In this document: one piece after another, positions 18,474 to 43,149 of the stretch | Numbering within the stretch: the first letter of the stretch is position 1 | Layout: each line of letters starts with the position of its first letter | Assembly: GCA_035299765.1 (NCBI GenBank) | Contig: DATGVZ010000083.1 | Span: 2,381-66,380, forward strand | Source of the DNA: Gemmatimonadales bacterium | GTDB lineage: Bacteria > Gemmatimonadota > Gemmatimonadetes > Gemmatimonadales > GWC2-71-9 | Length of the DNA: 64,000 bases | Direction: 5' to 3' | Notes under the pieces: generated by a model | Told to the model about the DNA's origin: nothing | Databases searched by the model: none | Seen by the model: only the letters and a program-made list of their open reading frames with translations | Made by a program: the position numbers and the translations under genes

Positions 18474-18693
18474 CAGAACGCAACGCATTGTTGCGAAATG
18501 CGAGACGTTAGTATCGCTACGTGATGCCGTTCGGCGCATTTAAGTACTTGAGATCACGGAGCCGTCTCCGTTGCTGTCCGCGGCGGAACGAGGATTGCCC
18601 CGATGGTCGAGTCGCTGCTCAGAGCATACCCGTCGAAAGACGGCGACGCAGAGCTACGGGGCTACCGCGGATCACCGCCACGCCCGCCGGGCC

Positions 18694-18724
18694 GCCAGCG
18701 CATGACATGCTGGCGGTCTTTTTT
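18694..18724 (+). terminator. candidate intrinsic terminator (GCCAGC-loop-GCTGGC followed by TCTTTTTT)
   Basis: A 6-7 bp GC stem (18694-18699 / 18709-18714) is followed by a T6 run (18719-24), which is conspicuous in this GC-rich DNA. It lies between the two beta-helix genes. The stem is short. Confidence 0.35.
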
Positions 18725-28805: not shown

Positions 28806-30118
28806 GCTGCCACTGCCTGGGGCCACTGACGCAGCGGCGTCCCAAGACGCAGCGCGACACACACGGCCACCACAAAAAACGTGATGGGTTCGTATGCAAT
28901 CGAGAGGAAGAAGCCGCCGACGAGCAGCGCAACCATGCCTCCGAGGGCGGCCTCCGCGAGGCTGGCTTCTTGCCTGGCAACCTCGACCCCTCGCGCGGCA
29001 AGCTGACGGGCGACTTTGCGAAGTCGGCGGCTGGCCGCGGCCGCTACCCAGAGCAGCCGCACGAATGCAACCAGTCCGAACACGCCGAGCTCGGCACCGA
29101 CCTGGATGAAGACGTTATGGGCCGCCGAATACTTCACTCCATATCCCACATTCTCCTTACCACTGAGCACGCCCTCGGCAACCCCAAAGTTCTGCGCGCC
29201 CACACCCAGGAACGGCCGCCGTGCCATGTAGGACAGGCCTCGTTTCCACACGTTCACGCGGCCTTCGCGGAATGTGTAATTGTAGTCTTCTGTCGGATGG
29301 AGGATCGTGGAGAAACGCTCGCGAATCGCGGGCCCCGCCGTCAGCATCACGACCGCGGCTCCACTCGCGATCGCCAGCCCGACGATCACACGGCGACGTC
29401 CCGGTACCTGAACCAGCAACCAGCACGCCAGCAGCACAAGGCCAAGAAATCCGGCTCGCGATCCCGTCTTGACGATACCGCCCACCATCAAGAGTGTCCC
29501 CGCGATCCCGACGATTTTCCAGATCCCGCGATCGCTGACGAGCTGCAGCGCAAAGGGAATCACAACCAGCAGGTGGACTGCCGATTCGTTGGGATCGAGT
29601 GCCTGCCCGACGTACGCTCTGCCGCCGAGCACTTTGGCTGCACCCGCAAGGAGGGTGACCGCGACTACGCTTTCGAACACCACCAACGTTCGCAGCGAGG
29701 TTCGCAGGGTCCGACGATCACACCACCCCGTCATGGCAATCACGAAGAAGAGCAGGGTCTTCCAGAATTCCTGCGTGAGGAAGGCAACGCTGTTGCCGGG
29801 CCACACTGCCCCCGGGACGGACAGGATTGCCAGCAGAAGAATCACTCCGACACACGCGACCGCCGGAGTCCGCAGCACCGTCACCAGTGCGCGTCCCCGG
29901 ATGACCGTCAGCGCGCTCACCAGCAAGAGCACTCCGATGACTTTCGCCGGCTGCAGCCGATCCATGAGGGGCACGATCTCGTGAATCTTGGTGAGCGCGA
30001 GGACGGTGTAGGTGGCCAGTAGCCCGCGAAACACCTCGATCGCGCCTCGCTCCCGCGGCGGGGAGCGCTCCGCGGGCCGGGCGGGAACGAAGAACTCACC
30101 CGCTGGCAGGGACGTCAT
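28802..30118 (-). CDS. O-antigen ligase/polymerase family membrane protein (Wzy_C-type)
   Basis: Start ATG 30118 (MTSLPAGEFF). It has about 10 or more hydrophobic helices and a GSRAGFLGLVLLACW loop motif typical of the O-antigen ligase-like family. Confidence 0.7.
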   Translation of the reverse strand: MTSLPAGEFFVPARPAERSPPRERGAIEVFRGLLATYTVLALTKIHEIVPLMDRLQPAKVIGVLLLVSALTVIRGRALVTVLRTPAVACVGVILLLAILSVPGAVWPGNSVAFLTQEFWKTLLFFVIAMTGWCDRRTLRTSLRTLVVFESVVAVTLLAGAAKVLGGRAYVGQALDPNESAVHLLVVIPFALQLVSDRGIWKIVGIAGTLLMVGGIVKTGSRAGFLGLVLLACWLLVQVPGRRRVIVGLAIASGAAVVMLTAGPAIRERFSTILHPTEDYNYTFREGRVNVWKRGLSYMARRPFLGVGAQNFGVAEGVLSGKENVGYGVKYSAAHNVFIQVGAELGVFGLVAFVRLLWVAAAASRRLRKVARQLAARGVEVARQEASLAEAALGGMVALLVGGFFLSIAYEPITFFVVAVCVALRLGTPLRQWPQAVAA

Positions 30119-31293
30119 GTAGGGGCTCCCGGTCCTCTCGCATCGATCCACACGTCCCAACGACCGCGCATGGCATTCGCCGCCGCCATTATCAGCGCGG
30201 CGCACAGCACGACAGCACTGCGCGCGGTCCCCATGAAACCGATTCCTGGTCCCTGAGGGGACGGGCGCGGGGACGGGTGGTGACGTGGCGTGCGGCGGTT
30301 GCGGCTGACCTTCCAGCCGAGCGTCACGACAACAAGTCCGAGAGCGCCCGCGAGCGCGTCCCAGGGGCCGACGATGAGGAGCCCTCCCGCGATCACGCAA
30401 CCGACAGCGAGCGGCGTCATCAGCCGCAGCACCTTGTGGGACATGAATTGCCACCAGATCCGGTTCCGGCTCGGAAGGAGCAACGAGGGCATCCACGAGA
30501 TCAGCTGATAGTTACCGGTCAGTGTCCGCACTTTCCGCGCGAGCTCAATCGCATCGGACGGGGACCGAGTGTCGGTCGCGACAGCGCTGAGGGCGAAGCC
30601 CACTCGCTTACCGGCGCGGACCACCTGAAACGGCACCCACACGTCATCCAGCAGCAGTCCGCGCGGCAGCGGACGCCAGAATTCGCGCTTCAACGCGTAT
30701 AACGCGCCGCTGACGCCGACCGCACTGTCCAACGCCGCTTCGCGACAGCGCAGCCGGCGCTCCAGTCGCCAGTACCGCTCGTACAGGCTCTCACCGCCTG
30801 CCGGCGTCTCAATCTCCAGCGCCCCTGAGACCGCGCCCATGTCTGGAGACGCGAGGACGTCGACGAGCGCCTCCACCGCACCGGGTGCGATCTGCTGCCG
30901 CACGTCCGTAAATACGAGCACGTCACCGCGCGACAGCTCCACGGCACGATTGAGCGCGACCGCCTTGCCTTGTCGCTGCGGCAGTACCTCAACCCTCACG
31001 CGGCGGTCGGAGATTTCTGCCAGCCCGCTAGTTGCTGCCGCGTCCGGCCCGTCCACCACGACGATGATCTCCGCTGGCAGAGTGATCGTTTGGAGCAGGT
31101 TCCGGACCTTCCCGGCGAGATTTCCGCCCCCGGCGGCAATGATGACAGAAATGAGCTGCGGTCTGGAACGACCCGACGGTGAGGGAGGACGCTCTGGCAG
31201 TCGGCTCACGATCCATGGGTAGCCGACGTAGGTATAGAGCAAATGCACAGCCCCGAGCCCGAAAAGCGTGATGCCCCAGGAGCTCCCTGTCAT
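30115..31293 (-). CDS. membrane-anchored glycosyltransferase family 2
   Basis: Start ATG 31293 (MTGSSWGITLFGLGAVHLLY). GT-A core ISVIIAAGGG...IIVVVDGPD...GKAVALNRAVELSRGDVLVFTDV, followed by C-terminal TM helices. Confidence 0.75.
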   Translation of the reverse strand: MTGSSWGITLFGLGAVHLLYTYVGYPWIVSRLPERPPSPSGRSRPQLISVIIAAGGGNLAGKVRNLLQTITLPAEIIVVVDGPDAAATSGLAEISDRRVRVEVLPQRQGKAVALNRAVELSRGDVLVFTDVRQQIAPGAVEALVDVLASPDMGAVSGALEIETPAGGESLYERYWRLERRLRCREAALDSAVGVSGALYALKREFWRPLPRGLLLDDVWVPFQVVRAGKRVGFALSAVATDTRSPSDAIELARKVRTLTGNYQLISWMPSLLLPSRNRIWWQFMSHKVLRLMTPLAVGCVIAGGLLIVGPWDALAGALGLVVVTLGWKVSRNRRTPRHHPSPRPSPQGPGIGFMGTARSAVVLCAALIMAAANAMRGRWDVWIDARGPGAPT

Positions 31294-32396
31294 GAGTGTG
31301 GCCTCACTGCAACACTCGTGACCCGTCGATACACTTGGCGCCATCCCTGCTTGGCTTGTGACCAGCGATAGCGGGCACACTCGCGCCGGGCCTCGGCCGC
31401 GAGCCGGCCCGCAAGTCCCGGCTCGCGCAGCACACGCAGCACCGCGGCTGCCAGGGCAGCAGGCCGGTCCACGGGGACGAGGAGTCCGGTCCGCCCGTCC
31501 TCGACGATGCGCGGAATCCCTCCTGCCGCGGTCGTGACAACCGGGACGCCGGCAGCAAACGCCTCGATAATGACATGGGGCATGTTGTCGACGCGGGAGC
31601 TGTTTACGAGAATGCCGCCCTGCGCGAGCACGGCGGGCATCGCGCGGTGCGGCACTTCACCATGGAACTGCACGTCCGAGAGACCGAGATCCCCGACGGC
31701 GCGGCGCAGTGCGCGCGCAGCGGTTCCGCCGCCATAGATGTCCAGCACGGCGTCAGGGGCCTCGGACTTGAGGAGGGCAAAGGCACGCAGCGTATTGTCG
31801 ATGCCGTACAAAGGTTCGAGCAGACGGGCGGACACGAGGCGCGGGCGGACACGCTCCGGGCGGCGGTAGCTGAAGGCGCTCGTATCGACCACGTTGGTCA
31901 CGACAACGCCGTCGATGCCGTGGCGGCGAAAAACCTCCTGCAGATATGTGGACGGAAACACGAGGACTGCCGCGCGCCGTGCCGCCCAGCGCAGCAGCGG
32001 CCCCCACCAGCGGAAGTGTGCCTCGGCGCGGCCGTCGTGATAGTTCAGGACGACTGGTCGCCGCCGTAGCCTCGCAATCACCACGGCGGGCAGCGCCCCG
32101 AAGAGGAACGCCGTGTGAGCGGCCGCGAACACGTGTATCACATCGGCTCGTGCCGCGGCGCGGATCAGTCCACCGCAATACAGCAAGGGCCGAATCACGG
32201 AGCGAATGAACTTCCATTCTGTCAGGCCGCGCAGCACACCCGATAGCCGTGGATCGATCGGCTGCAGCTCGATCGAGATCTCGGGATCCTTGGTGAACCC
32301 GCGCACGATATCGCCGGCGGCGCGCGCGTGACCGCCTACCGCTCTCCCGGGAGCGGCAATCACAACGTGCAGGCGACGCTGCGACGAGGCAGCCAT
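31290..32396 (-). CDS. glycosyltransferase family 4
   Basis: Motifs LHVVIAAPGRAVGGHA and NSSRVDNMPHVIIEAFAAGVPVVTTAAGGIPRIVEDGRTG (EX7E). Confidence 0.8.
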   Translation of the reverse strand: MAASSQRRLHVVIAAPGRAVGGHARAAGDIVRGFTKDPEISIELQPIDPRLSGVLRGLTEWKFIRSVIRPLLYCGGLIRAAARADVIHVFAAAHTAFLFGALPAVVIARLRRRPVVLNYHDGRAEAHFRWWGPLLRWAARRAAVLVFPSTYLQEVFRRHGIDGVVVTNVVDTSAFSYRRPERVRPRLVSARLLEPLYGIDNTLRAFALLKSEAPDAVLDIYGGGTAARALRRAVGDLGLSDVQFHGEVPHRAMPAVLAQGGILVNSSRVDNMPHVIIEAFAAGVPVVTTAAGGIPRIVEDGRTGLLVPVDRPAALAAAVLRVLREPGLAGRLAAEARRECARYRWSQAKQGWRQVYRRVTSVAVRPHS

Positions 32397-32416
32397 ATCC
32401 AGCCACGCAACCGGGT

Positions 32417-33415
32417 TTATGAAACGGCCGCCGTCATGCCGACTGCACGTACTGACGTTCTCCGCGTCGCCACCAACGACAACCAGGTACGTCGCAGCCC
32501 ATCCTCCATCGACACGCGAGGCTTAAACCCGAGTACGCCCTCGGCTCGCTCGAGGTTCGCCAGGGAATCGCGCACATCGCCCGCTCGCGCTGCGAATGAG
32601 GCGAATTGCAGCGCATGACCCGTCACACTCCCGATCATGCTGATCAGCTCCACCAGCGATGTACGTTTTCCCGCGCCGATATTGACGACGCGGCCATTGG
32701 CGCGCTCCGAGGGCGCCGTGGCGGCGAGCACGTTTGCGTCGACCACGTTGTCGACGTAAATGAAATCGCGGGTCTGCCGCCCGTCGCCATACAGCGCGGC
32801 CGGCCGCTGCTCGACCACGGCCTGTAGGAAATTCGGGATCACCGCAGCATACGCCGATTTTGGAGACTGACGCGGCCCGAATACGTTGAAGTAGCGCAGC
32901 GCGACGCCTTCCAACATGCCGGCGCGCGCGAACGCGAGAACGTATTGCTCCCCTGCCAGTTTGGACGCGGCGTAGGGCGAGCGCGGCAACGGCTCAGTCG
33001 CTTCGGCCCGTGCCTGATCATCCGCATCACCATAGACCGCGCTCGAGCTCGAATACACGACCCGGGGCACGCGCGCCGCTGCGCACGCCTCCAATAAGCG
33101 CATCGTGGCGTTCACATTGGCGTGGTGAGTCGCCCAGGGATTACGCAGCGAGTGCGGCACGCTGGCCAGCGCCGCGAGATGGAAAACCAGCTCGATTCCC
33201 GTCACCGCGCGGCGACAGACCTCCGGGTCGCACAGATCCCCCTCCAGGAAGTCGATCGCGTCGGCGACCGGCGTGAGGTTCGCGCGATCGCCGCTACTGA
33301 GGTTGTCGACGACGCGCACCGCGCAGCCCAGTCCGACGAGCCGTTCGGCGAGATGGGAGCCGATGAATCCGGCGCCCCCGGTAACCAGACAGGTCTTTCT
33401 TCTCATTGCTGGCAT
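32417..33415 (-). CDS. NAD-dependent nucleotide-sugar 4-epimerase (WbpP/GalE-like SDR)
   Basis: Motifs CLVTGGAGFIGSHLAERL and catalytic YAASK. The start is ATG 33415 or 33406. It is the first gene of the long - strand EPS operon. Confidence 0.85.
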   Translation of the reverse strand: MPAMRRKTCLVTGGAGFIGSHLAERLVGLGCAVRVVDNLSSGDRANLTPVADAIDFLEGDLCDPEVCRRAVTGIELVFHLAALASVPHSLRNPWATHHANVNATMRLLEACAAARVPRVVYSSSSAVYGDADDQARAEATEPLPRSPYAASKLAGEQYVLAFARAGMLEGVALRYFNVFGPRQSPKSAYAAVIPNFLQAVVEQRPAALYGDGRQTRDFIYVDNVVDANVLAATAPSERANGRVVNIGAGKRTSLVELISMIGSVTGHALQFASFAARAGDVRDSLANLERAEGVLGFKPRVSMEDGLRRTWLSLVATRRTSVRAVGMTAAVS

Positions 33416-33729
33416 CGCGCTCCCGCTTGCGCGCCTGTCTTGCAAGCCCGACGCCACCACGACCGCGCGAGGCGCACGCTGCTGCCGGCCTTTAAGCCAC
33501 GCCGAAGCAATGAGATATGTCGCCATCTGCTGTTCAGTCCCCGCGACTGAGACAGCCACGGGCTGTGGCAGCGACGAGACAGTTTACCGCGCGGTCCCTC
33601 GTGCGCTGTCGCTCCAACTTCTTGTCAATAGGTCGGTTAGAGCCGCTGCGCATGGCACCGCTCTTGCGACCCCCCATCCACCATTCACAGGGCCTCGGCA
33701 CGGAGGCTTCCAAGCGGAGGTGTAAGCGG

Positions 33730-34044
33730 ATGCGGCTTCCAATGCCCAGTCCGGATGTGATTTACAAGGCTGTAGACAACGGCGCGGTGCTGCTGTCCGT
33801 GAGCGACGAGGTCTATTACGGACTCAACGGCGTCGGCAGCTACATCTGGGAACATCTCCCGCCTGTCCTCGAAAATTTCGAGGCGCTCTGCGCGTCGGTC
33901 GGCGAGAAGTATCCCGACGCTTCCGCCGAGACGATTCGCGCAGACGTCCGCACGCTGCTCGAGGATCTCATGAGGCATGGGCTGGTGCGCACGCCAGCCG
34001 GCAGCGATGAAGTCGGTCAGCTTGAACCCGCGCGATTGGGTTGA
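33730..34044 (+). CDS. lasso peptide biosynthesis B1 protein (PqqD-family RiPP recognition element)
   Basis: Frame of ORF 33517..34044. ATG 33730 has GGAGG at 33716-33720; ATG 33742 is an alternative start. The PqqD-like pattern is VIYKAVDNGAVLLSVSDEVYYGLNGVGSYIWEHL...L...YPD......DV..LLEDL...GLV. Confidence 0.8.
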   Translation: MRLPMPSPDVIYKAVDNGAVLLSVSDEVYYGLNGVGSYIWEHLPPVLENFEALCASVGEKYPDASAETIRADVRTLLEDLMRHGLVRTPAGSDEVGQLEPARLG

Positions 34045-34438
34045 TCTCCTCGCTGCCCAGGCTGCTCTGGCTCGGGCTCAACTCCTGGTGTGGATCCGGC
34101 GCCCAGGGGCGCTCCTGACGCCGATGGTCGAGGCCCCGGCGGCGCCTGCGGACCCCGGCGCCGCTCTCCAGGCTGAGTGCGTTGCGCACGCCGTCTCGCG
34201 GGCGGCGCGGCATGGGTTGTTCCGGCCGAGCTGTCTCGTACGCGCGGTCGCGTTGCACCAGATGCTGCAGGCCCGCGGGTTGACCGGCAGCTCGCTGCGC
34301 GTCGGAGTCCGCCGCGAGGGCGCCGCATTTCTGGCTCATGCGTGGGTGGACTACCGCGGCATGGTGCTGGGCGAGGAGGAATGGCATGTGAAGCAGTTCG
34401 AGGAGTTGGCACGCATGGGCGTGCCGCGGACACAATGA
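34007..34438 (+). CDS. lasso peptide biosynthesis B2 protein (transglutaminase-core Cys protease)
   Basis: It carries RPSCLVRAVALHQMLQARGL...LRVGV......FLAHAWVDYRG, the Cys/His signature of the lasso leader peptidase. The start is ATG 34007 (MKSVSLNPRDW) or 33977. Either overlaps the B1 3-prime end. Confidence 0.8.
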   Translation: MKSVSLNPRDWVDLLAAQAALARAQLLVWIRRPGALLTPMVEAPAAPADPGAALQAECVAHAVSRAARHGLFRPSCLVRAVALHQMLQARGLTGSSLRVGVRREGAAFLAHAWVDYRGMVLGEEEWHVKQFEELARMGVPRTQ

Positions 34439-36447
34439 GCGGGATCTTCGGAGTCTTCACGCGCGATCGGGAGCCGATCGAGGACGTTGTGTCCGCGTCT
34501 TTGATCGCAGGCTTGGCGTCTCGCGGAAACGAGATCTCCTCGGTATGGCAGCTCAACGGAGCCGCGCTCGGCGTAACGCGTCGAGCGTGGGAGCGGGACA
34601 GTCCATTCAGCGGCGACGCTGGCGTTGTTTCGTGCGGCGACCTGACGATCGCGGCCGACGCCTCGCTGTATTATCGCCGTGAGCTGTGTGCCAAACTCGC
34701 AGCCGCCGGCGTGCACCCTGAAAGTGACACACCGAGCCACTTCATCGTCGCGGCCTATCGCGCGTGGGGGCGCGAATGTCTGCGACAGCTCGAAGGGGAC
34801 TACGCGTTCATTCTTTGGGACGCGCGGCGGCGCGAGATCTTTTGCGCGCGGGACTTCGCCGGCACCCGGCCACTCTTCTACCTGAAGACGGGCCGCCGTG
34901 TGGTCCTCGCCTCCACGCTTGCGGCGCTCCGCGCCGTGCCTGATTGCCCGCCGCAGTACAACGCCGCATACCTCGGCGAAACCGCTGCGAATCTGTGGCT
35001 CGCGGCAGACGAAACAGCGTACACCGCCCTCACAGCGCTGCCCGCTGGGTTCGCGCTGTCGACCACCCCTGGCGGTGCTGTCGTCACCTATCGTGCCTGG
35101 AGTCCGCCGGCCATCGACACGGCTGGTTCACCGTCATTCGAAGATGCCGCCTTGGAGCTCCGGGAGAAGCTCGCTCGCGCCGTCGGAGAACGCCTGAGTG
35201 GTGCGCGAGTCACAACGGTATGGATGAGCGGCGGCCGAGATTCCACCGCGATTTTTGGTGTGGGGCAGCGCGAGCTACGGGGCCAGGACCACCCGACGCG
35301 ACTCCTGCCGGTATCGATGAGCTATCCAATTGGCCATCGTGGTCGCGAGGACGAATTCATCACCGCTGTAGCAGGGTTCTGGGATGTCCCGGTGCAGTGG
35401 CTGAGCAGCGCGGACGTGCCATTCCTTGCGGATCCTGAACAGCAGGCGCGGCCGCGCGACGAGCCCTACGCCCCTCCCCACGAGATGATGAGTCGCGCAC
35501 TCGCGCGCGGCAGCGGCGGCGTGGGTGCCCGCATCGCGCTCGATGGGTGGGGCGGCGATCAGCTGTTTGAGCTGTCTCCCATTTACCTCGCCGATCTGTT
35601 CCGCCGCGGCCGTTGGTTGCAGCTGCGCCGCGAATGGAGCCGGCTGCAAATTCGGAACCGACGCTTTTTCCTGCAGTCGGCGATCGTGCCGACAATTCCG
35701 CCGGCGATTCGCGCGTTAGCTGGACTGCGCGGCGACCTCGAGCGCCGCATCCCTGATTGGATCGTGCCCCGTTGCGCGAAGCAGCTACGTGCGCGACAGC
35801 CGTCCCACCTGCCCCTGCGCGGAGGTGCGTCGTTTGCGGATCACGAGCTCTACATCGCTCTGACCGCCGACACCGCGGCGCGCGTCCGCGGCTGGCTGTC
35901 GGCGATCGCGCTCGATGAGGGGGTGGAGGTCCGCTCGCCGCTGTACGACTCCCGAATCATCGAGCTGGCGGTACGGAGACCGGCAGAGGAGCGCCGTTCC
36001 GGACGCGATACGAAGTTGTTGTTACGCGCCGCACTGCGCGGCCTCTTGCCCGAAGCGGTTCTCGCCCCACGCAAAGATCGCACGGGACTGGCTGGGGATC
36101 ATTTCCGCGCTGCGATGCAGTCGACGTTCCCGACGCTACTGCGGGAACTGCGCGATGCATCGGTGCTCGCGGACTTGGGCATCATCGACCCCGGTGCGCT
36201 ACGTCGCGCCGCCGATGATTGCCTCCTCCATTCCTGGAATGACGAGATCGCCGCCGCCCTGTTCTTCACGGTGCAAACGGAGCTGTGGCTCCGCGGTGTC
36301 GATCGCAAGGCGACTCACGATGATGGCCAACGGTTGGCCGTCCTTTCGCCAGGCGAGCGGCCTGGCAACGCCCCGCAGCCGGGAGGTAACAGGTGTACGA
36401 AACCCCGAAACTCGAGCGCTTCGGAACTTTTCGGGATCTCACGATGA
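34435..36447 (+). CDS. lasso peptide cyclase (asparagine synthetase-like lactam synthetase, C protein)
   Basis: Frame of ORF 34177..36447. ATG 34435 is in an ATGA overlap with the B2 stop. It starts MSGIFGVF, so it has no Cys2, as is typical for lasso cyclases. The PP-loop is VWMSGGRDSTAIF. A non-conserved-looking C-terminal tail overlaps the precursor leader. Confidence 0.85.
   Translation: MSGIFGVFTRDREPIEDVVSASLIAGLASRGNEISSVWQLNGAALGVTRRAWERDSPFSGDAGVVSCGDLTIAADASLYYRRELCAKLAAAGVHPESDTPSHFIVAAYRAWGRECLRQLEGDYAFILWDARRREIFCARDFAGTRPLFYLKTGRRVVLASTLAALRAVPDCPPQYNAAYLGETAANLWLAADETAYTALTALPAGFALSTTPGGAVVTYRAWSPPAIDTAGSPSFEDAALELREKLARAVGERLSGARVTTVWMSGGRDSTAIFGVGQRELRGQDHPTRLLPVSMSYPIGHRGREDEFITAVAGFWDVPVQWLSSADVPFLADPEQQARPRDEPYAPPHEMMSRALARGSGGVGARIALDGWGGDQLFELSPIYLADLFRRGRWLQLRREWSRLQIRNRRFFLQSAIVPTIPPAIRALAGLRGDLERRIPDWIVPRCAKQLRARQPSHLPLRGGASFADHELYIALTADTAARVRGWLSAIALDEGVEVRSPLYDSRIIELAVRRPAEERRSGRDTKLLLRAALRGLLPEAVLAPRKDRTGLAGDHFRAAMQSTFPTLLRELRDASVLADLGIIDPGALRRAADDCLLHSWNDEIAAALFFTVQTELWLRGVDRKATHDDGQRLAVLSPGERPGNAPQPGGNRCTKPRNSSASELFGISR
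36381..36386 (+). promoter_or_regulatory. Shine-Dalgarno (GGGAGG) for the lasso precursor gene
   Basis: GGGAGG lies 6 nt upstream of GTG 36393. The in-frame TAA at 36387-36389 excludes any more upstream start. Confidence 0.6.
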
Positions 36448-36509
36448 CCGTATTGGGACCCGGGACCCAGGACTTGCTCATGGGCGGGAATATTCTCTCG
36501 AGTTCGTAG
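36393..36509 (+). CDS. lasso peptide precursor (A peptide), 38 aa: MYETPKLERFGTFRDLTM-TVLGPGTQDLLMGGNILSSS
   Basis: Hand translation. It has a GTG start with a strong SD. The leader has Tyr-17, Pro-14, Leu-12 and Thr-2 when cleaved after Met18. The core has a single acidic residue, at position 9. It sits immediately after the B1/B2/C genes and before the kinase. It is absent from the ORF track because it is shorter than 60 aa. Confidence 0.75.
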   Translation: MYETPKLERFGTFRDLTMTVLGPGTQDLLMGGNILSSS

Positions 36510-36573
36510 CTCGAAGGGTGCTGGGGGGGCGGGGCTGCGTTCCAGACCCTACCCCCTCGGTAGCTCTCTGCCG

Positions 36574-37605
36574 ATGCCCACGTATTCGATTTTTGGCGAT
36601 TGCCTGCGCTCGGAGATCACACTTCCGGAGTTGCGTCGCTCGCGTAAACACGCGCGCTGGACGCTGCGGATAGGCGTGATCCCCCCTCCGGCACTGTCCG
36701 ATGGCGCCGAGCTCTTGGGAAGCGAGACGGTGATGGATGGAGTGGACGTGCGGCTCTATCGCCTCGCCAACGGCTACCGCTTGCAGTACGACGACACGGG
36801 CTCGTTCGACATCTCTGCGGAGGGCCGCGAGATCGTCTGGTCGGGAAACGGGAATGGAAACGCTGCCAAGCTCCTCGACGCCGTCCGACTCGACGTCATT
36901 AATCGGGTATTGCCCGTGGCGCTGCACGCGGCCGGGACCCTCTGTCTCCATGGCAGCGCGGTGAGTCTAAACGGAAAGGCGATCGCTTTTCTTGCTCCCC
37001 GTTGCCACGGCAAATCCACGCTGGCACTCGCGCTCTCGCAAATCGGGGGGCGCATCCTGACGGATGATGCGCTGCCGGTGGAGCCCAGCGTGCCTGGCCG
37101 CGGCAGATCCGTGTCGGCGCGCCCTGGTGTGCACAGCGTGCGGCTCTTCGACGACACCGCGCGCGTCGTTCTCGGCGACCCACGGAATTGGAAACGAGTC
37201 GGCGCATACCCGCTGCCCCGGCGCGATGGCCACCTGCTTCCCGATGATCAGCCCGCGATCACGAAGCAGATTTTGCGCGGGATTCCGTTGCACAAGTTGA
37301 TGCTTCGGACAGTGCCGCTCGCGGCGATTTACGTGTTGCGACCGGTCCGCGGCGACGGAGACCGCCCCGTCCTCAGCCGCACGGCACTCGCGCCCGTACG
37401 CGCGGCATTGTCTCTCGTCGAGCACGCCAAGTCCGGCGCGCTGCTGGGGCGCTCCGAGGCGCCACGCTTACTGGACCGCGCCGTCACGATCGCACGCCAG
37501 GTCCCGGTCTACGTGCTCGAGATCGTTCGCGACCTGTCCCGCATCGATGAGGCCGCCCGGGAGCTCGCGGGGTGGCACGTCCGCACCAACGGCCGCTACG
37601 TATGA
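36574..37605 (+). CDS. HPr kinase-like P-loop kinase (lasso precursor Ser kinase type)
   Basis: It carries LCLHGSAVSLNGKAIAFLAPRCHGKSTLALAL...GGRILTDDALPVEP, the pattern of HprK-related kinases encoded in paeninodin-type lasso clusters. Confidence 0.75.
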   Translation: MPTYSIFGDCLRSEITLPELRRSRKHARWTLRIGVIPPPALSDGAELLGSETVMDGVDVRLYRLANGYRLQYDDTGSFDISAEGREIVWSGNGNGNAAKLLDAVRLDVINRVLPVALHAAGTLCLHGSAVSLNGKAIAFLAPRCHGKSTLALALSQIGGRILTDDALPVEPSVPGRGRSVSARPGVHSVRLFDDTARVVLGDPRNWKRVGAYPLPRRDGHLLPDDQPAITKQILRGIPLHKLMLRTVPLAAIYVLRPVRGDGDRPVLSRTALAPVRAALSLVEHAKSGALLGRSEAPRLLDRAVTIARQVPVYVLEIVRDLSRIDEAARELAGWHVRTNGRYV

Positions 37606-38810
37606 TCGCCTCTCAATCGCTCTCAGCGGAGGCGCAGCTGCTGCTCATGGCCGCCGACGGCCGGAGCGATGCCACGCACGCATCGATATCTCTCGACGAT
37701 CATTTCGATTGGGCGAAGCTCTTGCGTCTCGCCCAGGAGGAGGGTTCCACCGCGCTCGTGTGGCGTTGGGTGCGGCACACCCACGCTCAGCATGTGCCCG
37801 CTGACGTCGCAATTCAATGGCAGCGACTTGCGATGGTCGCCGAATTCCAGATGTTGCATTTGGAGCGTTTGCTGGACGACGTGCTCGACGTGTTCGAGGC
37901 GTACGGGATCGAGTCCGTTCTGCTGAAGGGCAGCGCGCTCGCATACACGGTGTATGGCTCCTTCGCGGCCCGCCCGATGGGCGATCTCGACTTGCTGGTG
38001 CGACCAGTCCAAGCGCAGGAAGCGTGGTCGCTGCTGCAAGCGAACGGCTGGGTCTGGCCATCGGACCGCTGGCCACGCGCGCATTACGTTGCCCATCAGC
38101 ATTTGCCTCCGCTCGTCCATTCATCGGGCAGCGAGCTCCGCGCGGAGATTCATTCCGCGCTGTTCCCCATTGGTCACCCCTTCCGCTGGCCGGTCGAGGA
38201 CGTGTGGAATCAGGCGACGCGGCTGCGCGTGCAGAATCGTTCCGTGCTCGTGCCGCAACCGTTCCATCAGTTGTTGCACCTCTGCATCCACTTTGCCTGG
38301 TCGCACGAGATGCGCTGGGGCAGCTGGCGCGCGCTGCGGGATGTCGCCGCCATCACGAGGCGCGAGAACATCGGCTGGACGGCGTTTGTCGAGACCGCGC
38401 GTACCTGCCGGGCGACGACATGCTGTTACTGGACCCTGCGCCTGGCTCGCGACCTCAGCGGCGCGCTCGTGCCGGATGACGTGCTGCATGCCTTGCGGCC
38501 GCCGAGACCGGAGTCGCTGTTACGGCGCCTCGAGTGTCATTACACGCTTCAGCTCTTTGCCCTCGACAACGTCTGCCCGTCGGAAGGGTTGAACAATGCG
38601 TTATGGCAGCTGGGCATTGCGCCGCGGTGGTGCGGACACGGCGGTGCCCGGCCGTGGCAAGGCGCCGAGCACTGGACGGCGAACGGCGACCAGCGAAGCG
38701 CGCGCGCGGCCTGGCCGCGGCGGATTATGAACCGGGTGCGTCACGCGGCGGCGATTCTCGTGTATCTGGGGAGGGTAACGGCGACGACGGGGCACCCGCT
38801 TCGCGCTTGA
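37602..38810 (+). CDS. nucleotidyltransferase family protein (NTP_transf_5 / PF14907-like)
   Basis: ATG 37602 in an ATGA overlap with the kinase stop. The motif VLLKGSALAYTVYGSFAARPMGDLDLLVRP is characteristic of this family. Its 3-prime end overlaps convergent rarA by 86 nt. Confidence 0.7.
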   Translation: MIASQSLSAEAQLLLMAADGRSDATHASISLDDHFDWAKLLRLAQEEGSTALVWRWVRHTHAQHVPADVAIQWQRLAMVAEFQMLHLERLLDDVLDVFEAYGIESVLLKGSALAYTVYGSFAARPMGDLDLLVRPVQAQEAWSLLQANGWVWPSDRWPRAHYVAHQHLPPLVHSSGSELRAEIHSALFPIGHPFRWPVEDVWNQATRLRVQNRSVLVPQPFHQLLHLCIHFAWSHEMRWGSWRALRDVAAITRRENIGWTAFVETARTCRATTCCYWTLRLARDLSGALVPDDVLHALRPPRPESLLRRLECHYTLQLFALDNVCPSEGLNNALWQLGIAPRWCGHGGARPWQGAEHWTANGDQRSARAAWPRRIMNRVRHAAAILVYLGRVTATTGHPLRA

Positions 38811-40113
38811 GCTTCGCCCACCAATCCATGCGCTCCTTCACCGTCTTCTCGTAGCCGAATTCGCTGGGTTGATACCAGCGACGGCCCCGCAAGGGTTCGG
38901 GCAAATACTCCTGTGGTAAGTACGCGTTTTCGGAATCGAACGCGTACTTGTAGTCCGCGCCGTAGCCGAGCTCTTTGAGCAGCGGCGTCGGCGCGTTGCG
39001 AACGTGCAGCGGGACCGGCTCGGCCGGATGCTCGCGCGCGGCGGTCATGGCGTCACCGAACGCGGTGTACGCCGAGTTCGACTTCGGGGCCGTCGCGAGA
39101 TAGATCGCCGCTTCCGCGAGTGCGAGCTCCCCCTCCGGACTGCCGAGGAAGTGGTAGGCGTCTTTTGCGGCGAGCGCGACGGTGAGCGCGCGCGGATCCG
39201 CGAGTCCGATGTCCTCACTCGCCATGCGCACGAGGCGGCGCGCGATGTACAGGGGATCCTCGCCGCCTGCGAGCATGCGCGCGAGCCAGTAGAGCGCGCC
39301 GTCGGCATCCGAGCCACGCACGGCTTTGTGCAGTGCCGAGATCAGGTTGAAGTGCTGTTCGCCGGCTTTGTCGTAGACGGGAAGCGGTTTCTCGAGCACG
39401 CTCAGCACGAGATCGGCACCAATGGGACTGGGGACTGGGGACTGGTGTTCGGCGTGCTTGAAGACCGCTTCGAGAGTGTTCAAGGCGCGGCGCGCGTCTC
39501 CTTGAGCATGTCGCACCAATAGCTCAAGCGCTTCAGCATCGAATACCTCCGCCGCGCTGCTCTTCTCCTTTTCCCATTCCCCAGTCCCCCGGGCGATAAT
39601 CGTCCGTATGTGGTCGTCGTTGAGCGGCTCGAGCACGAACACCCGGCACCGCGACAACAACGCGCTCGTCAGCTCGAAGGACGGATTCTCGGTCGTGGCG
39701 CCGATGAGCGTGATGACGCCGTTCTCGACCCAGGGGAGAAACGCGTCCTGCTGCCCCCTGTTGAATCGATGGATCTCGTCGCAGAAGAGGATCGTGCCCT
39801 GCCCCTGGTACTTCAGCCGCTCCTCGGCCTCTCTGATGATCTCGCGCACTCGGGCGACGCCCTCGGTCACCGCGGAAAACGGCTCGAAGTGCCGGTCGGT
39901 GTAATTCGCGATGATTTTGGCGAGGGTGGTTTTGCCGGACCCCGGCGGGCCCCAGAAGATGCACGATCCGACGTCGCCCCTGCGGATCAGATCGCCGAGG
40001 GCTTTGCCGGGGCCGAGGAGGTGCTCCTGGCCGAGGAACTGCTCGAGGTTTTTCGGCCGCATGCGCGCCGCGAGCGGTTCGGCGGAGCCCTGGAATAACG
40101 TCGGTTCCTTCAC
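38725..40113 (-). CDS. rarA: replication-associated recombination protein A (AAA+ ATPase)
   Basis: Motifs PLAARMRPKNLEQFLGQEHLLG, Walker A GPPGSGKTT, CDEIHRFNRGQQDAFLP and GDARRALNTLE. The start is GTG at 40113. Confidence 0.9.
   Translation of the reverse strand: MKEPTLFQGSAEPLAARMRPKNLEQFLGQEHLLGPGKALGDLIRRGDVGSCIFWGPPGSGKTTLAKIIANYTDRHFEPFSAVTEGVARVREIIREAEERLKYQGQGTILFCDEIHRFNRGQQDAFLPWVENGVITLIGATTENPSFELTSALLSRCRVFVLEPLNDDHIRTIIARGTGEWEKEKSSAAEVFDAEALELLVRHAQGDARRALNTLEAVFKHAEHQSPVPSPIGADLVLSVLEKPLPVYDKAGEQHFNLISALHKAVRGSDADGALYWLARMLAGGEDPLYIARRLVRMASEDIGLADPRALTVALAAKDAYHFLGSPEGELALAEAAIYLATAPKSNSAYTAFGDAMTAAREHPAEPVPLHVRNAPTPLLKELGYGADYKYAFDSENAYLPQEYLPEPLRGRRWYQPSEFGYEKTVKERMDWWAKLKREAGAPSSPLPSPDTRESPPRDAPGS
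39424..39445. repeat. G-tract repeat copy GGGACTGGGGACTGGGGACTGG inside rarA
   Basis: Read directly from the sequence. It is translated on the - strand as HQSPVPSPIG. It belongs to the same family as the 40122 and 55427 copies. Confidence 0.7.
39573..39590. repeat. G-tract repeat copy (CCCATTCCCCAGTCCCCC on + strand) inside rarA
   Basis: It is in inverted orientation relative to 39424-39445 and is translated as GTGEWEK in RarA. Confidence 0.7.
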
Positions 40114-40121
40114 CGGGCGGC

Positions 40122-40144
40122 GGGGAATGGGGACTGGGGAATGG
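40122..40144. repeat. left 23-nt inverted repeat GGGGAATGGGGACTGGGGAATGG
   Basis: Read directly from the sequence. It is the exact reverse complement of 40584-40606. Confidence 0.9.
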
Positions 40145-40217
40145 TATGCATTCTTTTAGCACTCGCCTGCACGCATTGGATTCGGTTGCGGAGCATGGAC
40201 TAATACATACTCATCAC

Positions 40218-40625
40218 ATGAAACAACTTGACACCCTTGAGGCATGGAAATGCGCACAGAAGCTTGCCCGCGATGCCTACAGTCTAACCCTGCGAGATCC
40301 TCTTAATCGACACTTCGGAATCGCCGACCAGATTCGGCGAGCCGCAACGTCGATCCCCGCCAACATGGTCGAGGGTCACGCACTCGCTACGACTGCACAA
40401 TTCATCCGTTGTTTGAGAATAGCACTCGGATCAACGGCAGAGCTCCTTAGTCATCTAAAGATCAGCGTCGACCTCAGGTTGATTCTCGAGTCTGATGGAC
40501 AAGCAATAATCGGCTTGACTGAACGAACACTGCGGCTCCTCATAGGGCTACTGCGTTCGCTCGATACGAACCGTCATCGCACGCCATTCCCCAGTCCCCA
40601 TTCCCCTAAGCAGCGGCATCTATGA
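40218..40625 (+). CDS. four-helix-bundle protein (23S rRNA intervening-sequence protein family, Avd-like fold)
   Basis: Frame of ORF 40146..40625, with a likely start at MKQLDTLEAWKCAQKLA (ATG 40218). The family motif is ADQIRRAATSIPANMVEG. The last 13 codons read through the right inverted repeat (PFPSPHSP). Confidence 0.75.
   Translation: MKQLDTLEAWKCAQKLARDAYSLTLRDPLNRHFGIADQIRRAATSIPANMVEGHALATTAQFIRCLRIALGSTAELLSHLKISVDLRLILESDGQAIIGLTERTLRLLIGLLRSLDTNRHRTPFPSPHSPKQRHL
40584..40606. repeat. right 23-nt inverted repeat CCATTCCCCAGTCCCCATTCCCC
   Basis: Read directly from the sequence. It is the exact reverse complement of 40122-40144. Confidence 0.9.
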
Positions 40626-41325
40626 TGAGTTTCGTGACGAAGAATAAGGCGGCGCCAGCGAAGAACGCCGCCGGCAATCCCCAGCCTTTCTTACCCTGGA
40701 ACTCAGGAACGAGGTTCGATGCGGCGACGTAAATCGTCACCCCCGCCGACAGCGCTAAGCCGTGCTGGATGAGGAAGCCCATCTCATTGGTGAGCAGCAC
40801 ACCAATGAGCGTTGCCAGGCCAAGCAAGGCCGCTGCTCCCACGGCCCGGCCGCCGGAGCGTCCACCCGCGAGCATGAGGCTCGAAATCGTGACTCCCTCG
40901 GGCAACTTGTGCAGGAAGATCGCGATGAACACCATGATCCCCAGTTCCGGACGGACCAGAAACGCGCTCGCGATCGCCACGCCATCGAAGAACGTGTGCA
41001 GCAGTAGTCCGATCAGCGCGGAAGTCCCGGCAACGGAGCTGACCGCGTGAGTCTCTTCGCCAAAGTGGAAGTGCGGCGTCACGGTGTGTTGGGTGAGGTG
41101 CACGGCCAGGTACCCGGCCAGCACGAGCGCCGGGGCGGCGGGCCCGCTGCGTGATAGCGCCGCCGGCAGCAGCTCGACAATCGCGACCGACAGCATGAAT
41201 CCCGCACCGAAGGCCACGAGCAGCTCGATGATTTGCAGCTCGCGGACCGCGCGCCGTGTGACGGCCAGCGCGCCCAGCACGTTGCCGGCGGCCGCGACCA
41301 GCGCGTACAACAGTGCCTTAGACAC
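40606..41325 (-). CDS. ZIP family metal (Zn/Fe) transporter
   Basis: Motifs HTFFDGVAIASAF and HKLPEGVTISSLML, with multiple TM helices. The probable start is GTG 41325 (VSKALLYALVAAAG), overlapping the upstream gene by 8 nt. Confidence 0.8.
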   Translation of the reverse strand: MSKALLYALVAAAGNVLGALAVTRRAVRELQIIELLVAFGAGFMLSVAIVELLPAALSRSGPAAPALVLAGYLAVHLTQHTVTPHFHFGEETHAVSSVAGTSALIGLLLHTFFDGVAIASAFLVRPELGIMVFIAIFLHKLPEGVTISSLMLAGGRSGGRAVGAAALLGLATLIGVLLTNEMGFLIQHGLALSAGVTIYVAASNLVPEFQGKKGWGLPAAFFAGAALFFVTKLIIDAAA

Positions 41326-42466
41326 GGGACAGGAGATAGCTCTTGGTGTTGCGCGCCGGATCTTCGAGCACTTCTTCGAGCAGGCGCGCCAATGCTTCTC
41401 CGACGTCCGGCCCGGGCCTGACGCCGGCAGCAATCAAGTCATCGCCTTTCACAGCCAGATCCTTCAAGCCGAGCGGCGGATTCGCGGCCCGGATCCCGGC
41501 GACGCTCTTCCGGAAGGCGTCAGTCGCCCCCACCAGCAAATCGTCTGCGTATTCACCCGTCTCCGAGAGCCATTTGCGGATGCGCGCTGCGTCGCGTGGA
41601 TCGGGGTAATTCCCGCGCCATTTGCCGATGGCCCGCCCGCGCTCGATGTCCCGGTTCGAGCTCTTGAGCCGGATCAGCAGCGACGCTGGATCCTTGGCGA
41701 TGTACGCCGTCACGAGCACCGGATCTCGCGGCAGTTGGTCCACGCCACTGGCGTCGCCCAGCTCGGGAAGCCAGATGCGCGTCGCGCCGACGTCCCGCCA
41801 CAGGGCGACAAGTTTCGATAGTTTTATCGCCGTCTGAATCCCCTTGAACCATTCATCACGGACGCGCTCGGCGGACAGCTGGGCGAGTCCCTGCACATTG
41901 GCTTTTGCGGCCTCGAGCGTCCGCGCATGAATGCGAAACTCGAACCGGGCGCTGAACCGCAGCGCCCGCAAAATTCGCAGATAGTCCTCCTGGAAACGCC
42001 AATTCGGATCGCCGACGGAGCGGATCAGCCGCTTCTGGAGGTCCTGCTCGCCTTGAAATGGGTCGCGCCATTCGTGACGGATGGGATGATACGCGATCGC
42101 GTTGATGGTGAAGTCGCGCCGCGCAAGGTCATCCATGAGCGAGACGCCGAACTCGACGACGGCGTGTCGCCCATCCGTCTTGATGTCTTTACGGAAAGTG
42201 GTGACCTCATGGACCCGTCTGTCTTTATCCAGGATGCCGACGGTTCCGTGTTCGATGCCCACGGGAACGACGCGCCTGAACACCTGCTCCACCTGCTCTG
42301 GCGTCGCCGCGGTGGTGAGATCGAACACATGTTCTCGAATCTCGACGCCGAGGAGACTATCGCGAATCGCACCACCGACGCACCAGGTTTCAAATCCAGC
42401 ATCTTCGAGCTTCTTCGCGATCTTCACAACTTCGGGTGGAATGGGCAGCGAGGCGGGAAAAGTCAT
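41318..42466 (-). CDS. CCA tRNA nucleotidyltransferase / poly(A) polymerase family protein
   Basis: Pol-beta-like head domain with WCVGGAIRDSLLG...FDLTT and RRDFTINAIAY. Confidence 0.8.
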   Translation of the reverse strand: MTFPASLPIPPEVVKIAKKLEDAGFETWCVGGAIRDSLLGVEIREHVFDLTTAATPEQVEQVFRRVVPVGIEHGTVGILDKDRRVHEVTTFRKDIKTDGRHAVVEFGVSLMDDLARRDFTINAIAYHPIRHEWRDPFQGEQDLQKRLIRSVGDPNWRFQEDYLRILRALRFSARFEFRIHARTLEAAKANVQGLAQLSAERVRDEWFKGIQTAIKLSKLVALWRDVGATRIWLPELGDASGVDQLPRDPVLVTAYIAKDPASLLIRLKSSNRDIERGRAIGKWRGNYPDPRDAARIRKWLSETGEYADDLLVGATDAFRKSVAGIRAANPPLGLKDLAVKGDDLIAAGVRPGPDVGEALARLLEEVLEDPARNTKSYLLSRV

Positions 42467-43149
42467 CCGCAGAGCACCGAGCCACCATTCACATTCAGAA
42501 TTTCACCTGTGATGTGCCGCGCCAATAGCGAGCAGAGAAACAGAATTGGCCCCGCGACATCATCGGCGGTGGCCACACGTCCGAGTGGAATCGTCTTTTC
42601 GATCTTCGCACGGCCGCCGGCGGCGTATGGCTTCGCCGACATCTCCGTATCGACCCACCCCGGCGCCACGCAATTCACGGTGATTCGCGGCGCCAGCTCG
42701 ACGGCAAGAGACTTCGTCAACGAGATCACCGCGCCCTTTGTCGCGGCATAGTCGGCGTGATAGGCTTCGCCGCGCTGCCCCGCCGTCGACGACACGAGCA
42801 CAATGGTTCCGGACGACATCGTGGCAATGGCGGCTCGACAGACGTAAAACATGGAGTCGAGATTCGCCCGCCGGGTGGACTCCCACTGTTCGTCGCTCAT
42901 CTTGCTGAGGGGAACGTCGTCGGGCGGCCAGACGCCATGATTGACGACGAGGATGTCGAGACCGCCGAGCCGTTGGATCGCATCGGCAACGATCCGTCGC
43001 GCGGTCGCCGCGTTGCCGAGATCCCCGCCCTGCGTCCGGCTGGTCACCGAGACGCTGGCGCCCGCGCGCTCGAGCAGTGTCGCGGTCGCGCGTCCAATCC
43101 CTCTCGTCCCCCCGGTCACGAGCGCCCGCTTGCCGGTGAGATCGATCAT
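42463..43149 (-). CDS. SDR family oxidoreductase (FabG-like)
   Basis: Motifs KRALVTGGTRGIGRA and catalytic YAATKGAV. Confidence 0.85.
   Translation of the reverse strand: MIDLTGKRALVTGGTRGIGRATATLLERAGASVSVTSRTQGGDLGNAATARRIVADAIQRLGGLDILVVNHGVWPPDDVPLSKMSDEQWESTRRANLDSMFYVCRAAIATMSSGTIVLVSSTAGQRGEAYHADYAATKGAVISLTKSLAVELAPRITVNCVAPGWVDTEMSAKPYAAGGRAKIEKTIPLGRVATADDVAGPILFLCSLLARHITGEILNVNGGSVLCG

Follow-up and report, generated by a model that had tools for sequence, protein, structure and literature searches.

In characterised lasso-peptide systems, residues Y-17, P-14, L-12 and T-2 of the precursor leader are the recognition elements for the B1 RRE (recognition element of RiPPs, peptides made by the ribosome and modified after translation) and the B2 protease (PMC10368454). 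The kinases of the paeninodin, ThcoK and SyanK systems are HPr-kinase homologues that act on the linear precursor and place a phosphate on its C-terminal Ser, and the pseudomycoidin nucleotidyltransferase adds a hexose to phospho-Ser (PMC8498205). BsfK, a characterised lasso precursor kinase, modifies Ser3 of the core (PMC10368454). Lasso clusters have previously been counted in metagenome-assembled genomes (MAGs) of Gemmatimonadota (PMC11316326). Here, a 64-kb stretch of a Gemmatimonadales genome (GenBank assembly GCA_035299765.1, contig DATGVZ010000083.1; hereafter, the window) was analysed around an open reading frame (ORF) of 38 codons that begins inside the 3' end of a lasso cyclase gene and is preceded by a conserved two-hairpin RNA element. 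At the level of sequence, the leader signature, cluster context and conservation establish this ORF as a genuine gene for a lasso-peptide precursor, of a kind already known but missing from the annotation. It is very likely precursor A of a split-B cluster with the order B1-B2-C-A-K-N, in which the overlap with the cyclase would be overprinting and the conserved unit a precursor cassette.

The ORF runs from a GTG at 36393 to a TAG at 36507-36509 and encodes 38 amino acids (product V(M)YETPKLERFGTFRDLTMTVLGPGTQDLLMGGNILSSS). GTG 36393 is the earliest possible start, with a single codon between it and an in-frame TAA (36387-36389). The features of the gene are as follows.

36381-36386, forward strand: Shine-Dalgarno (SD) sequence GGGAGG, 6 nucleotides (nt) ahead of the GTG start (sequence check)
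36393..36446, forward strand: leader part of precursor gene A, MYETPKLERFGTFRDLTM, with the GTG start and the NF033521 match
36447..36509, forward strand: core codons of precursor gene A, TVLGPGTQDLLMGGNILSSS, through the TAG stop; a Thr1-Asp9 macrolactam is predicted

On re-reading of the sequence, the positions given in the first-pass annotation for the ORF, SD, TAA, GTG and TAG proved correct to the base. Counted back from the M18/T19 junction, the leader carries Y-17, P-14, L-12, G-8 and T-2. The YxxPxL...Tx signature recognised in the first-pass annotation, and its placement of the leader/core junction, are borne out by a T-2 that is invariant in relatives and by an Asp at ring spacing. 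Scoring against lasso leader models had also been suggested; the NCBIfam model NF033521 (lasso_leader_L3) matches residues 2-18 end to end with 26.0 bits, against a cut-off of 19 (E-value 5.9e-6). A leader hidden Markov model (HMM) built from relatives only gives a single match in a six-frame search of the whole 64-kb window (E-value 6.9e-13, with the runner-up at 2.9), and the generic pattern Y..P.[LIVM]...G.....T. likewise matches once in the six-frame translation. A different precursor elsewhere had been allowed for, and a second one was sought across the 64-kb window with the leader HMM and the pattern in six frames; no other leader match was found.

Relatives were collected by two routes. 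Ten contig loci were fetched through cyclase homologues (cyclases 46-78% identical), and a leader-pattern scan of metagenomes confirmed 122 loci, 80 of them being retained; a single-cyclase scan of genome contigs returned one match only, a distant one. Family statistics were computed over 66 distinct complete precursors. All fetched clusters containing the cyclase-kinase junction carry an equivalent ORF at that place. All 66 precursors share the residues M, Y-17, P-14, E, R, F, G-8, T, R-5, L-3 and T-2, although the search pattern fixes [TK]P[KAR][LV]ERFGT and writes the initiator as M, so that invariance there is uninformative; R-5, L-3 and T-2 are invariant without being imposed by the pattern. 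The homologous start codon is ATG, GTG or TTG in nearly all relatives, and a GGAGG-like box stands at the equivalent position in almost all. The cores range from 17 to 51 residues and have Asp or Glu at position 7-9 in 64/66 precursors (at position 8 in 55). Position 1 of the core is V in 20, T in 13, I in 10, G in 8, A in 7 and S in 3. The fixed leader and variable core that had been expected downstream of homologous cyclases are thus what is seen: the leader is near-invariant and the core hypervariable across the 66 distinct precursors. The subfamily consensus leader, MYxxPK[LV]ERFGTFRELTx, and the present core with its TVLGPGTQD ring and SSS tail are new, in that neither is individually described in anything searched.

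The DNA of 36300-36580 is identical in four independent assemblies (GCA_009772555.1, one Logan assembly and two metagenomes of the Joint Genome Institute), which excludes an assembly artefact. No gene is called between cyclase and kinase in any of the four, and in the Gemmatimonadales MAG record the GenBank accessions of the cyclase and the next protein are consecutive (HLQ69558 and HLQ69559); the gene was missed by annotation, just as the first-pass annotation held. The equivalent ORF is called by other pipelines in five relatives (L006, L007, L009, L010 and L011).

The precursor gene is embedded in a set of genes on the same strand, in the order B1-B2-C-A-K-N, with B1, B2 and C all directly upstream.

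33730..34044, forward strand: B1, leader-binding PqqD-type RRE (Pfam PF05402 PqqD, E-value 2.3e-14)
34007..34438, forward strand: B2, transglutaminase-like leader peptidase (Pfam PF13471, E-value 7.7e-16)
34435..36447, forward strand: C, Asn-synthetase-like lasso cyclase of 670 amino acids (Pfam Asn_synthase and GATase_7)
36574..37605, forward strand: K, P-loop kinase of the HPr-kinase/phosphoenolpyruvate carboxykinase-like class, 343 amino acids (BsfK homology, AlphaFold fold)
37602..38810, forward strand: N, nucleotidyltransferase NTP_transf_5 (Pfam PF14907, E-value 3.2e-42)

The longest ORF of B1 begins at 33517, and gene callers on the identical contigs choose 33730 or 33742; NCBIfam lasso PqqD chaperone models match B1 below their cut-offs. 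B2 matches NCBIfam NF033537 (lasso_biosyn_B2) with 53.9 bits at a cut-off of 33, and the cyclase scores 234.6 bits with the NCBIfam lasso cyclase model, under its cut-off. Together with the leader score above its cut-off and the equivalent ORF in every junction-bearing relative, the B1-B2-C context bears out the lasso-precursor identity that had been proposed. The stop of B2 and the start of the cyclase overlap by 4 nt, as do the stop of the kinase and the start of N.

The cluster in the window holds no gene for an ATP-binding cassette (ABC) exporter. In some relatives, an ABC transporter pair (ABC_tran and ABC2_membrane) lies between the kinase and the nucleotidyltransferase (L009 5241-7107 and L010 7342-9154). 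Divergent to B1 in the window is a gene for a sugar epimerase/dehydratase dependent on nicotinamide adenine dinucleotide (31290-33559, reverse strand), found at the same place in L002, L004, L006, L008 and L010; beyond it, all close relatives have polysaccharide genes (the window has one for a family 4 glycosyltransferase, the relatives one for a deacetylase). The epimerase/dehydratase could supply a nucleotide sugar for N, or its position could merely reflect conserved synteny. In the Longimicrobiaceae relative L011 (1-380), a PqqD domain forms the C-terminus of a Lon-protease-like protein of 951 amino acids (LON_substr_bdg, AAA, Lon_C, PqqD), which would be an unusual RRE fusion.

The kinase has a GKST P-loop and aligns by BLASTP to BsfK (sequence from PMC10368454) with 28% identity over 215 amino acids (E-value 2e-13), an alignment that spans the LHGSAV.LNG...GKST...DD block. 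An HMM of the kinase family scores 52.6 bits with BsfK. Searches of the kinase sequence against Pfam and the PDB gave no match, and the NCBIfam model HprK_rel_A was matched below its cut-off (E-value 1.7e-6). The AlphaFold model of the kinase (predicted local distance difference test score 91.6) has phosphoenolpyruvate carboxykinases as its top PDB matches (E-value about 5e-8). HPr kinase belongs to the same fold class as these enzymes. By these comparisons, the cluster includes the HPr-kinase-like peptide kinase of phosphorylated lasso peptides. The core ends in SSS and so offers a C-terminal Ser, and by analogy the phosphorylation target is most probably one of these three residues, the C-terminal one being the likeliest. 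The ring acceptor in the core would be Asp9 of TVLGPGTQD. The predicted monoisotopic masses are 1940.988 for the lasso, 2020.954 with a phosphate and 2183.007 with a phosphate and a hexose.

That the leader is encoded within the last 55 nt of the cyclase gene, in another frame, is confirmed from the sequence. The cyclase TGA (36445-36447) overlaps the Met18 codon ATG (36444-36446), and relative to the cyclase frame the precursor begins at an offset of +2. The cyclase stop was located in 48 distinct homologous cyclase-precursor junctions. An overlap is present in 15 of them (55 nt in six, 49 nt in three, 44 nt in four, and 23 and 8 nt once each) and uses two different relative frames. The cyclase stops 8-52 nt before the precursor start in six junctions and 84-254 nt before it in the other 27. 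The stop of the extended cyclases is formed by leader codons, namely ATG or CTG followed by A at -1/+1 in the 55-nt overlaps and CTG-ACx at L-3/T-2 in the 49-nt overlaps; in the window the L-3 codon is CTC, and the cyclase frame consequently runs six bases further. The first stop that the extended cyclase frame meets comes from the leader codons, and that it coincides with the leader/core junction is a by-product of them. The first-pass annotation was right that the core-coding DNA starts where the cyclase ends, but the significance it attached to this is not supported.

Within the overlap, 248 of 370 pairwise substitutions (67%) fall at third positions of the leader frame, and amino-acid differences number 231 in the cyclase frame versus 115 in the leader frame. 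On these counts, purifying selection in the overlap is confined to the leader frame. Alignments of cyclase homologues cover ~93% of the query in most of the 120 matches listed, and similarity with more distant relatives ends near residue 620 (...ELWLR). As the alignments have it, the last ~45-50 residues of the cyclase arise where its frame reads on through the RNA element and into the leader of the precursor. The overlap thus looks like lineage-specific overprinting, incidental and neither conserved nor constrained.

A functional role for the overlap would have ribosomes that finish the cyclase either couple the synthesis of enzyme and substrate or unmask the SD sequence of the precursor. The overlap is real in the sequence, and the nine closest lineages (cyclases 46-78% identical) again show overlaps of 49-55 nt. 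The SD and start are partly paired in the window (pairing probability of the start 0.84) and could be opened by a passing ribosome, and the 11 overlap-class loci examined have no -10-like box upstream of the RNA element, suggesting read-through transcription. Against this, 33 of the 48 junctions have no overlap, and where there is one its length and frame vary, with no purifying selection in the cyclase frame. Classical coupling geometry does not fit, because the overlap is 55 nt and the cyclase terminates 52 nt past the precursor start; the truly coupled junctions of this operon (B2/C and kinase/nucleotidyltransferase), by contrast, are 4-nt overlaps of the ATGA type. The position of the stop is already accounted for by the leader codons, orphan copies keep the element and precursor together with no cyclase upstream, and 1:1 coupling would be the wrong stoichiometry for a substrate. 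A function of this kind is therefore unlikely, and the translational coupling suggested in the first-pass annotation is not upheld.

Incidental overprinting would also describe the relation of the cyclase to the RNA element that precedes the precursor gene.

36321..36368, forward strand: two-hairpin RNA element, 46 nt (covariance model R1, 57.4 bits, E-value 4.7e-12)

The first hairpin, P1, pairs 36323-36329 with 36335-36341 and has a loop that varies among relatives. It is joined by the linker CCUUUC (36342-36347; pyrimidine-rich CCUUYC in the family) to P2, which pairs 36348-36354 with 36360-36366 around the loop GAGCG (RARNG in the family). In an alignment of the DNA upstream of all precursors, conservation of the element is at the nucleotide level and holds alike in coding DNA, in intergenic DNA and next to orphan copies. 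A seed alignment of 47 sequences has 91.5% of cells paired, versus 18-47% when the partners are slid. Double changes occur in 7 of the 14 pairs; the outer P1 pair is AU in 28 sequences, GC in 8 and CG in 3, and in P2 three positions change from GC to AU, one of them being the A-U pair of the window itself. The covariation score was reached by 0/500 shuffles. A model-based alignment of 53 hits agrees with the seed alignment. RNAalifold on the first MAFFT alignment returned P1 only, sequences with longer P2 loops having been misaligned; the trimmed seed and the covariance-model alignment recovered both hairpins.

The R1 model was searched against both strands of 491 kb, in loci that had been collected through the precursor or the cyclase and not through the element. 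It gives 61 full-length hits at E < 1e-5, one per locus, all directly upstream of the precursor and on its strand. In the window the runner-up has an E-value of 0.7, so that 36321-36368 is the sole credible match. A TAnnnT box, often an extended -10, lies ~25-35 nt upstream of P1 in many of the non-overlapping loci, and in 0/11 of the overlap-class loci examined. An Rfam 15 cmscan of 36100-36700 (E-values up to 10) gave only two chance-level matches, both elsewhere than the element, and a scan of the whole window at gathering thresholds returned only a c-di-GMP-I riboswitch and nothing at the element. That riboswitch aptamer (RF01051) lies at 18613-18699 on the forward strand, scores 55.5 bits against a gathering threshold of 35 and is unrelated to the lasso cluster. 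The two-hairpin element is possibly a new cis-acting RNA. Literature searches on overlap, coupling or hairpins at lasso precursor genes brought up nothing relevant.

In the present genome the element is inside the cyclase ORF, where it is read as the semi-conserved peptide DDGxxLAVLSPGERPG. The block 36321-36368 might accordingly be a C-terminal peptide motif of the cyclase, or a DNA operator, rather than an RNA. It does encode that peptide in the read-through cyclases, and its stems are palindromic (GGCC...GGCC and CCGGGC...GCCCGG) and highly conserved, as protein-binding sites often are. As a peptide motif it is difficult to reconcile with the 27 of 48 junctions in which the cyclase ends before the block, with the orphan copies that have no cyclase, and with the cyclase of L011, which reads P2 in another frame (...VGRSSAGG...) while the nucleotides are kept. 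The variable loop lengths would not be tolerated by an operator of fixed spacing. G-U pairs are frequent (17 UG at pair 4-21 and 14 GU at the outer P2 pair), and the R1 model scores 33-64 bits on the sense strand versus about 14 bits on the opposite one; a sense-strand transcript is thereby indicated, and a peptide motif or an operator is unlikely.

Further structures around the start were considered beside the two-hairpin RNA element. The linker CCUUYC is not supported as an anti-SD sequence, with a mean SD-linker pairing probability of 0.05 in partition-function folding (a crude alignment had given 64.5%). A third hairpin over the SD and start has z < -2 in 10 of 53 sequences, with a mean z of -0.47, and is clade-specific, not family-wide. 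The leader-coding hairpin CCGAAGC/GCUUCGG was rejected as an RNA element: synonymous sites are paired in 26, 20 and 22 cases versus 25.6, 17.0 and 22.0 expected, and by this measure the hairpin is a by-product of the amino-acid sequence.

On its other side, the precursor gene is followed by a second structure.

36519..36562, forward strand: GC-rich hairpin after the precursor stop (folding energy versus controls)

Folding of the 70 nt behind the stop gives -37.0 kcal/mol; the 60 control windows average -23.6, and every one of them is less stable. Across the family, the post-stop hairpin is in the most stable 5% of its own controls at 31/71 loci. It is followed by a U-tract in several relatives and not in the window, where a terminator scan does not list it; the missing U-tract fits the need for transcription to read on into K and N. 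The conserved unit seen in these comparisons consists of element, SD, ORF and 3' hairpin, and is found in orphan copies with no cyclase nearby as well. Tentatively, the element and the 3' hairpin may form an undescribed, portable RiPP precursor cassette, by which the dosage of the substrate would be set via processing, stability or a translational switch controlled by a protein or ligand; the case for this is less than even.

The orphan precursor-like genes (MYQKPKVERFGTFRELTQVGFNGTTDGFTICG..., with long Cys-containing cores) were found at L086 3501-3674, L048-L050, L064, L070, L077 and L082-L087. These loci have no cyclase or kinase within 3.5 kb, and the RNA element is present. The copy in L086 sits between a DcuC transporter gene and a diacylglycerol kinase gene and keeps both the element and a terminator-like hairpin, which most orphan loci have. 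The orphans of L077 and L082-L087 carry the extended -10-like box TGGCATTAT, and the others carry other TAnnnT boxes. A separate set of leader-like ORFs (…YETPRLERFGTFRELTL…; L031 797, L042 3498 and L044 3498) has CTC or CGC at the homologous first codon, and the regions upstream have neither the usual SD nor a credible match to the RNA-element model. They may have decayed, or may use a different start.

Small ORFs are common around the locus, 143 of at least 30 amino acids overlapping 30000-43000, and the 38-codon size is for this reason not significant by itself. That the ORF is a chance untranslated frame in GC-rich DNA, its cluster being defunct or its precursor encoded elsewhere, might be argued from this abundance, from the GTG start and from the four annotation pipelines that did not call it, but is hardly credible given an NF033521 score above the curated cut-off, the sole leader-like sequence of the 64-kb window, the place, start codon, SD, third-position bias and Asp at core 8/9 conserved in relatives, and the five relatives in which pipelines do call it.

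The preferred reading is thus of a precursor gene A in a split-B cluster, overprinted by its cyclase and carried in a conserved cassette, and several points weigh against it. The host is uncultured and known from metagenomes only. Core position 1 is Thr and not the small residue (Gly, Ala, Ser or Cys) of classical lasso precursors; non-classical first residues exist, such as the Leu of citrulassin, and Thr1 is thus not excluding. The cleavage site is deduced solely from T-2 and the Asp spacing. The phosphosite is uncertain, as BsfK acts on Ser3 of its core and 35/66 family members end in Ser (50/66 have Ser among the final three residues). The stems of the RNA element are so strongly conserved in sequence that just a few outer and inner pairs carry the covariation, and kinship among the sequences can inflate the shuffle statistics. 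Ribosomes translating the cyclase could melt P1/P2 and the SD region, with a modest effect. A sigma-70 promoter scan of 33000-39000 found none, and for this reason the mechanism by which precursor would be made in excess is a conjecture.

By comparison with characterised systems, B1 would bind the leader at Y-17, P-14 and L-12, B2 would cleave after Met18 and C would link the Thr1 amine to the Asp9 side chain, giving a nine-residue ring. K would phosphorylate a Ser of the linear precursor, most probably the C-terminal one, and N may add a sugar to the phosphate. The cyclase of this lineage would have lost an earlier stop and come to read through the RNA element into the leader, ending at the first TGA that it meets out of frame, one provided by chance by the leader codons ATG-A. 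Through the flanking RNA structures the precursor cistron may, by conjecture, have a stability, processing or translation of its own, such that a substrate encoded in the middle of the operon could be made in excess over the enzymes.

The leader family (NF033521) and the K/N tailoring set (paeninodin, bsf and pseudomycoidin) are already known. What is new here is the consensus leader, the non-classical first core residue, the order B1-B2-C-A-K-N, the overprinting by the cyclase, and the RNA element, which alone among these could be a new entity. A small functional gene is hidden in the 3' end of a larger one, and since four pipelines missed it, miners of biosynthetic gene clusters would see the cluster as precursor-less. 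The overlap illustrates that ORF read-through in GC-rich DNA can overprint a regulatory RNA and a neighbouring gene without function. The relatives point to a large family of probably phospho- or glyco-tailored lasso peptides in uncultured Gemmatimonadota, with 66 distinct cores, many of them long and Cys-rich. The RNA element offers a testable handle on the expression of RiPP substrates in excess of their enzymes, and if the cassette interpretation is true, it was conserved so strongly that the cyclase ORF grew over it without disturbing it.

Among described systems, members of the NF033521 family share the leader architecture YxxPxL...G...Tx, the model spanning the leader only. The paeninodin type (PadeA/PadeK, with ThcoK and SyanK) resembles the window in its split B1/B2, Asn-synthetase-like cyclase, HPr-kinase-like kinase and precursor ending in Ser (PMC8498205). 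It differs from the window, where the order is B1-B2-C-A-K-N, the cluster has no ABC exporter, the host belongs to Gemmatimonadota and the core begins with Thr1 (PadeK is compared by its description only). The paeninodin core starts with AGPGTSTPD and has an A1-D9 ring, resembling TVLGPGTQD in the window.

The bsf cluster of Bradymonas sediminis (BsfA/B1/B2/C/D/K/N) has the A, B1, B2, C, K and N genes in common with the window (PMC10368454), and YxxPxL stands at -17 to -12 in both BsfA and the window precursor. In BsfA the residue at -2 is Ile, the ring joins Gly1 to Asp8 and Ser3 is phosphorylated, whereas the window precursor has Thr at -2 and a predicted Thr1-Asp9 ring; there is no Ser near core position 3 in the window, and its target is therefore probably the C-terminal Ser. 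The bsf cluster also encodes the transporter D, unlike the exporter-free cluster in the window. In pseudomycoidin, a kinase and a nucleotidyltransferase occur together beside the precursor, as they do here (PMC8498205). That system is from Firmicutes and has a different gene order, and the N proteins are likened by gene content alone.

For the arrangement of RNA structures, the nearest parallels are the cistrons of differential stability in polycistronic mRNAs and the hairpins that follow RiPP precursor genes, as in the papBA, puf and lanthipeptide lanA transcripts. Like these, the window has a small product in high demand encoded inside an operon, bracketed by stem-loops and with a terminator-like hairpin after the precursor. 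Unlike them, its 5' element is conserved in both sequence and structure throughout the family and, in this lineage, lies inside the upstream ORF.

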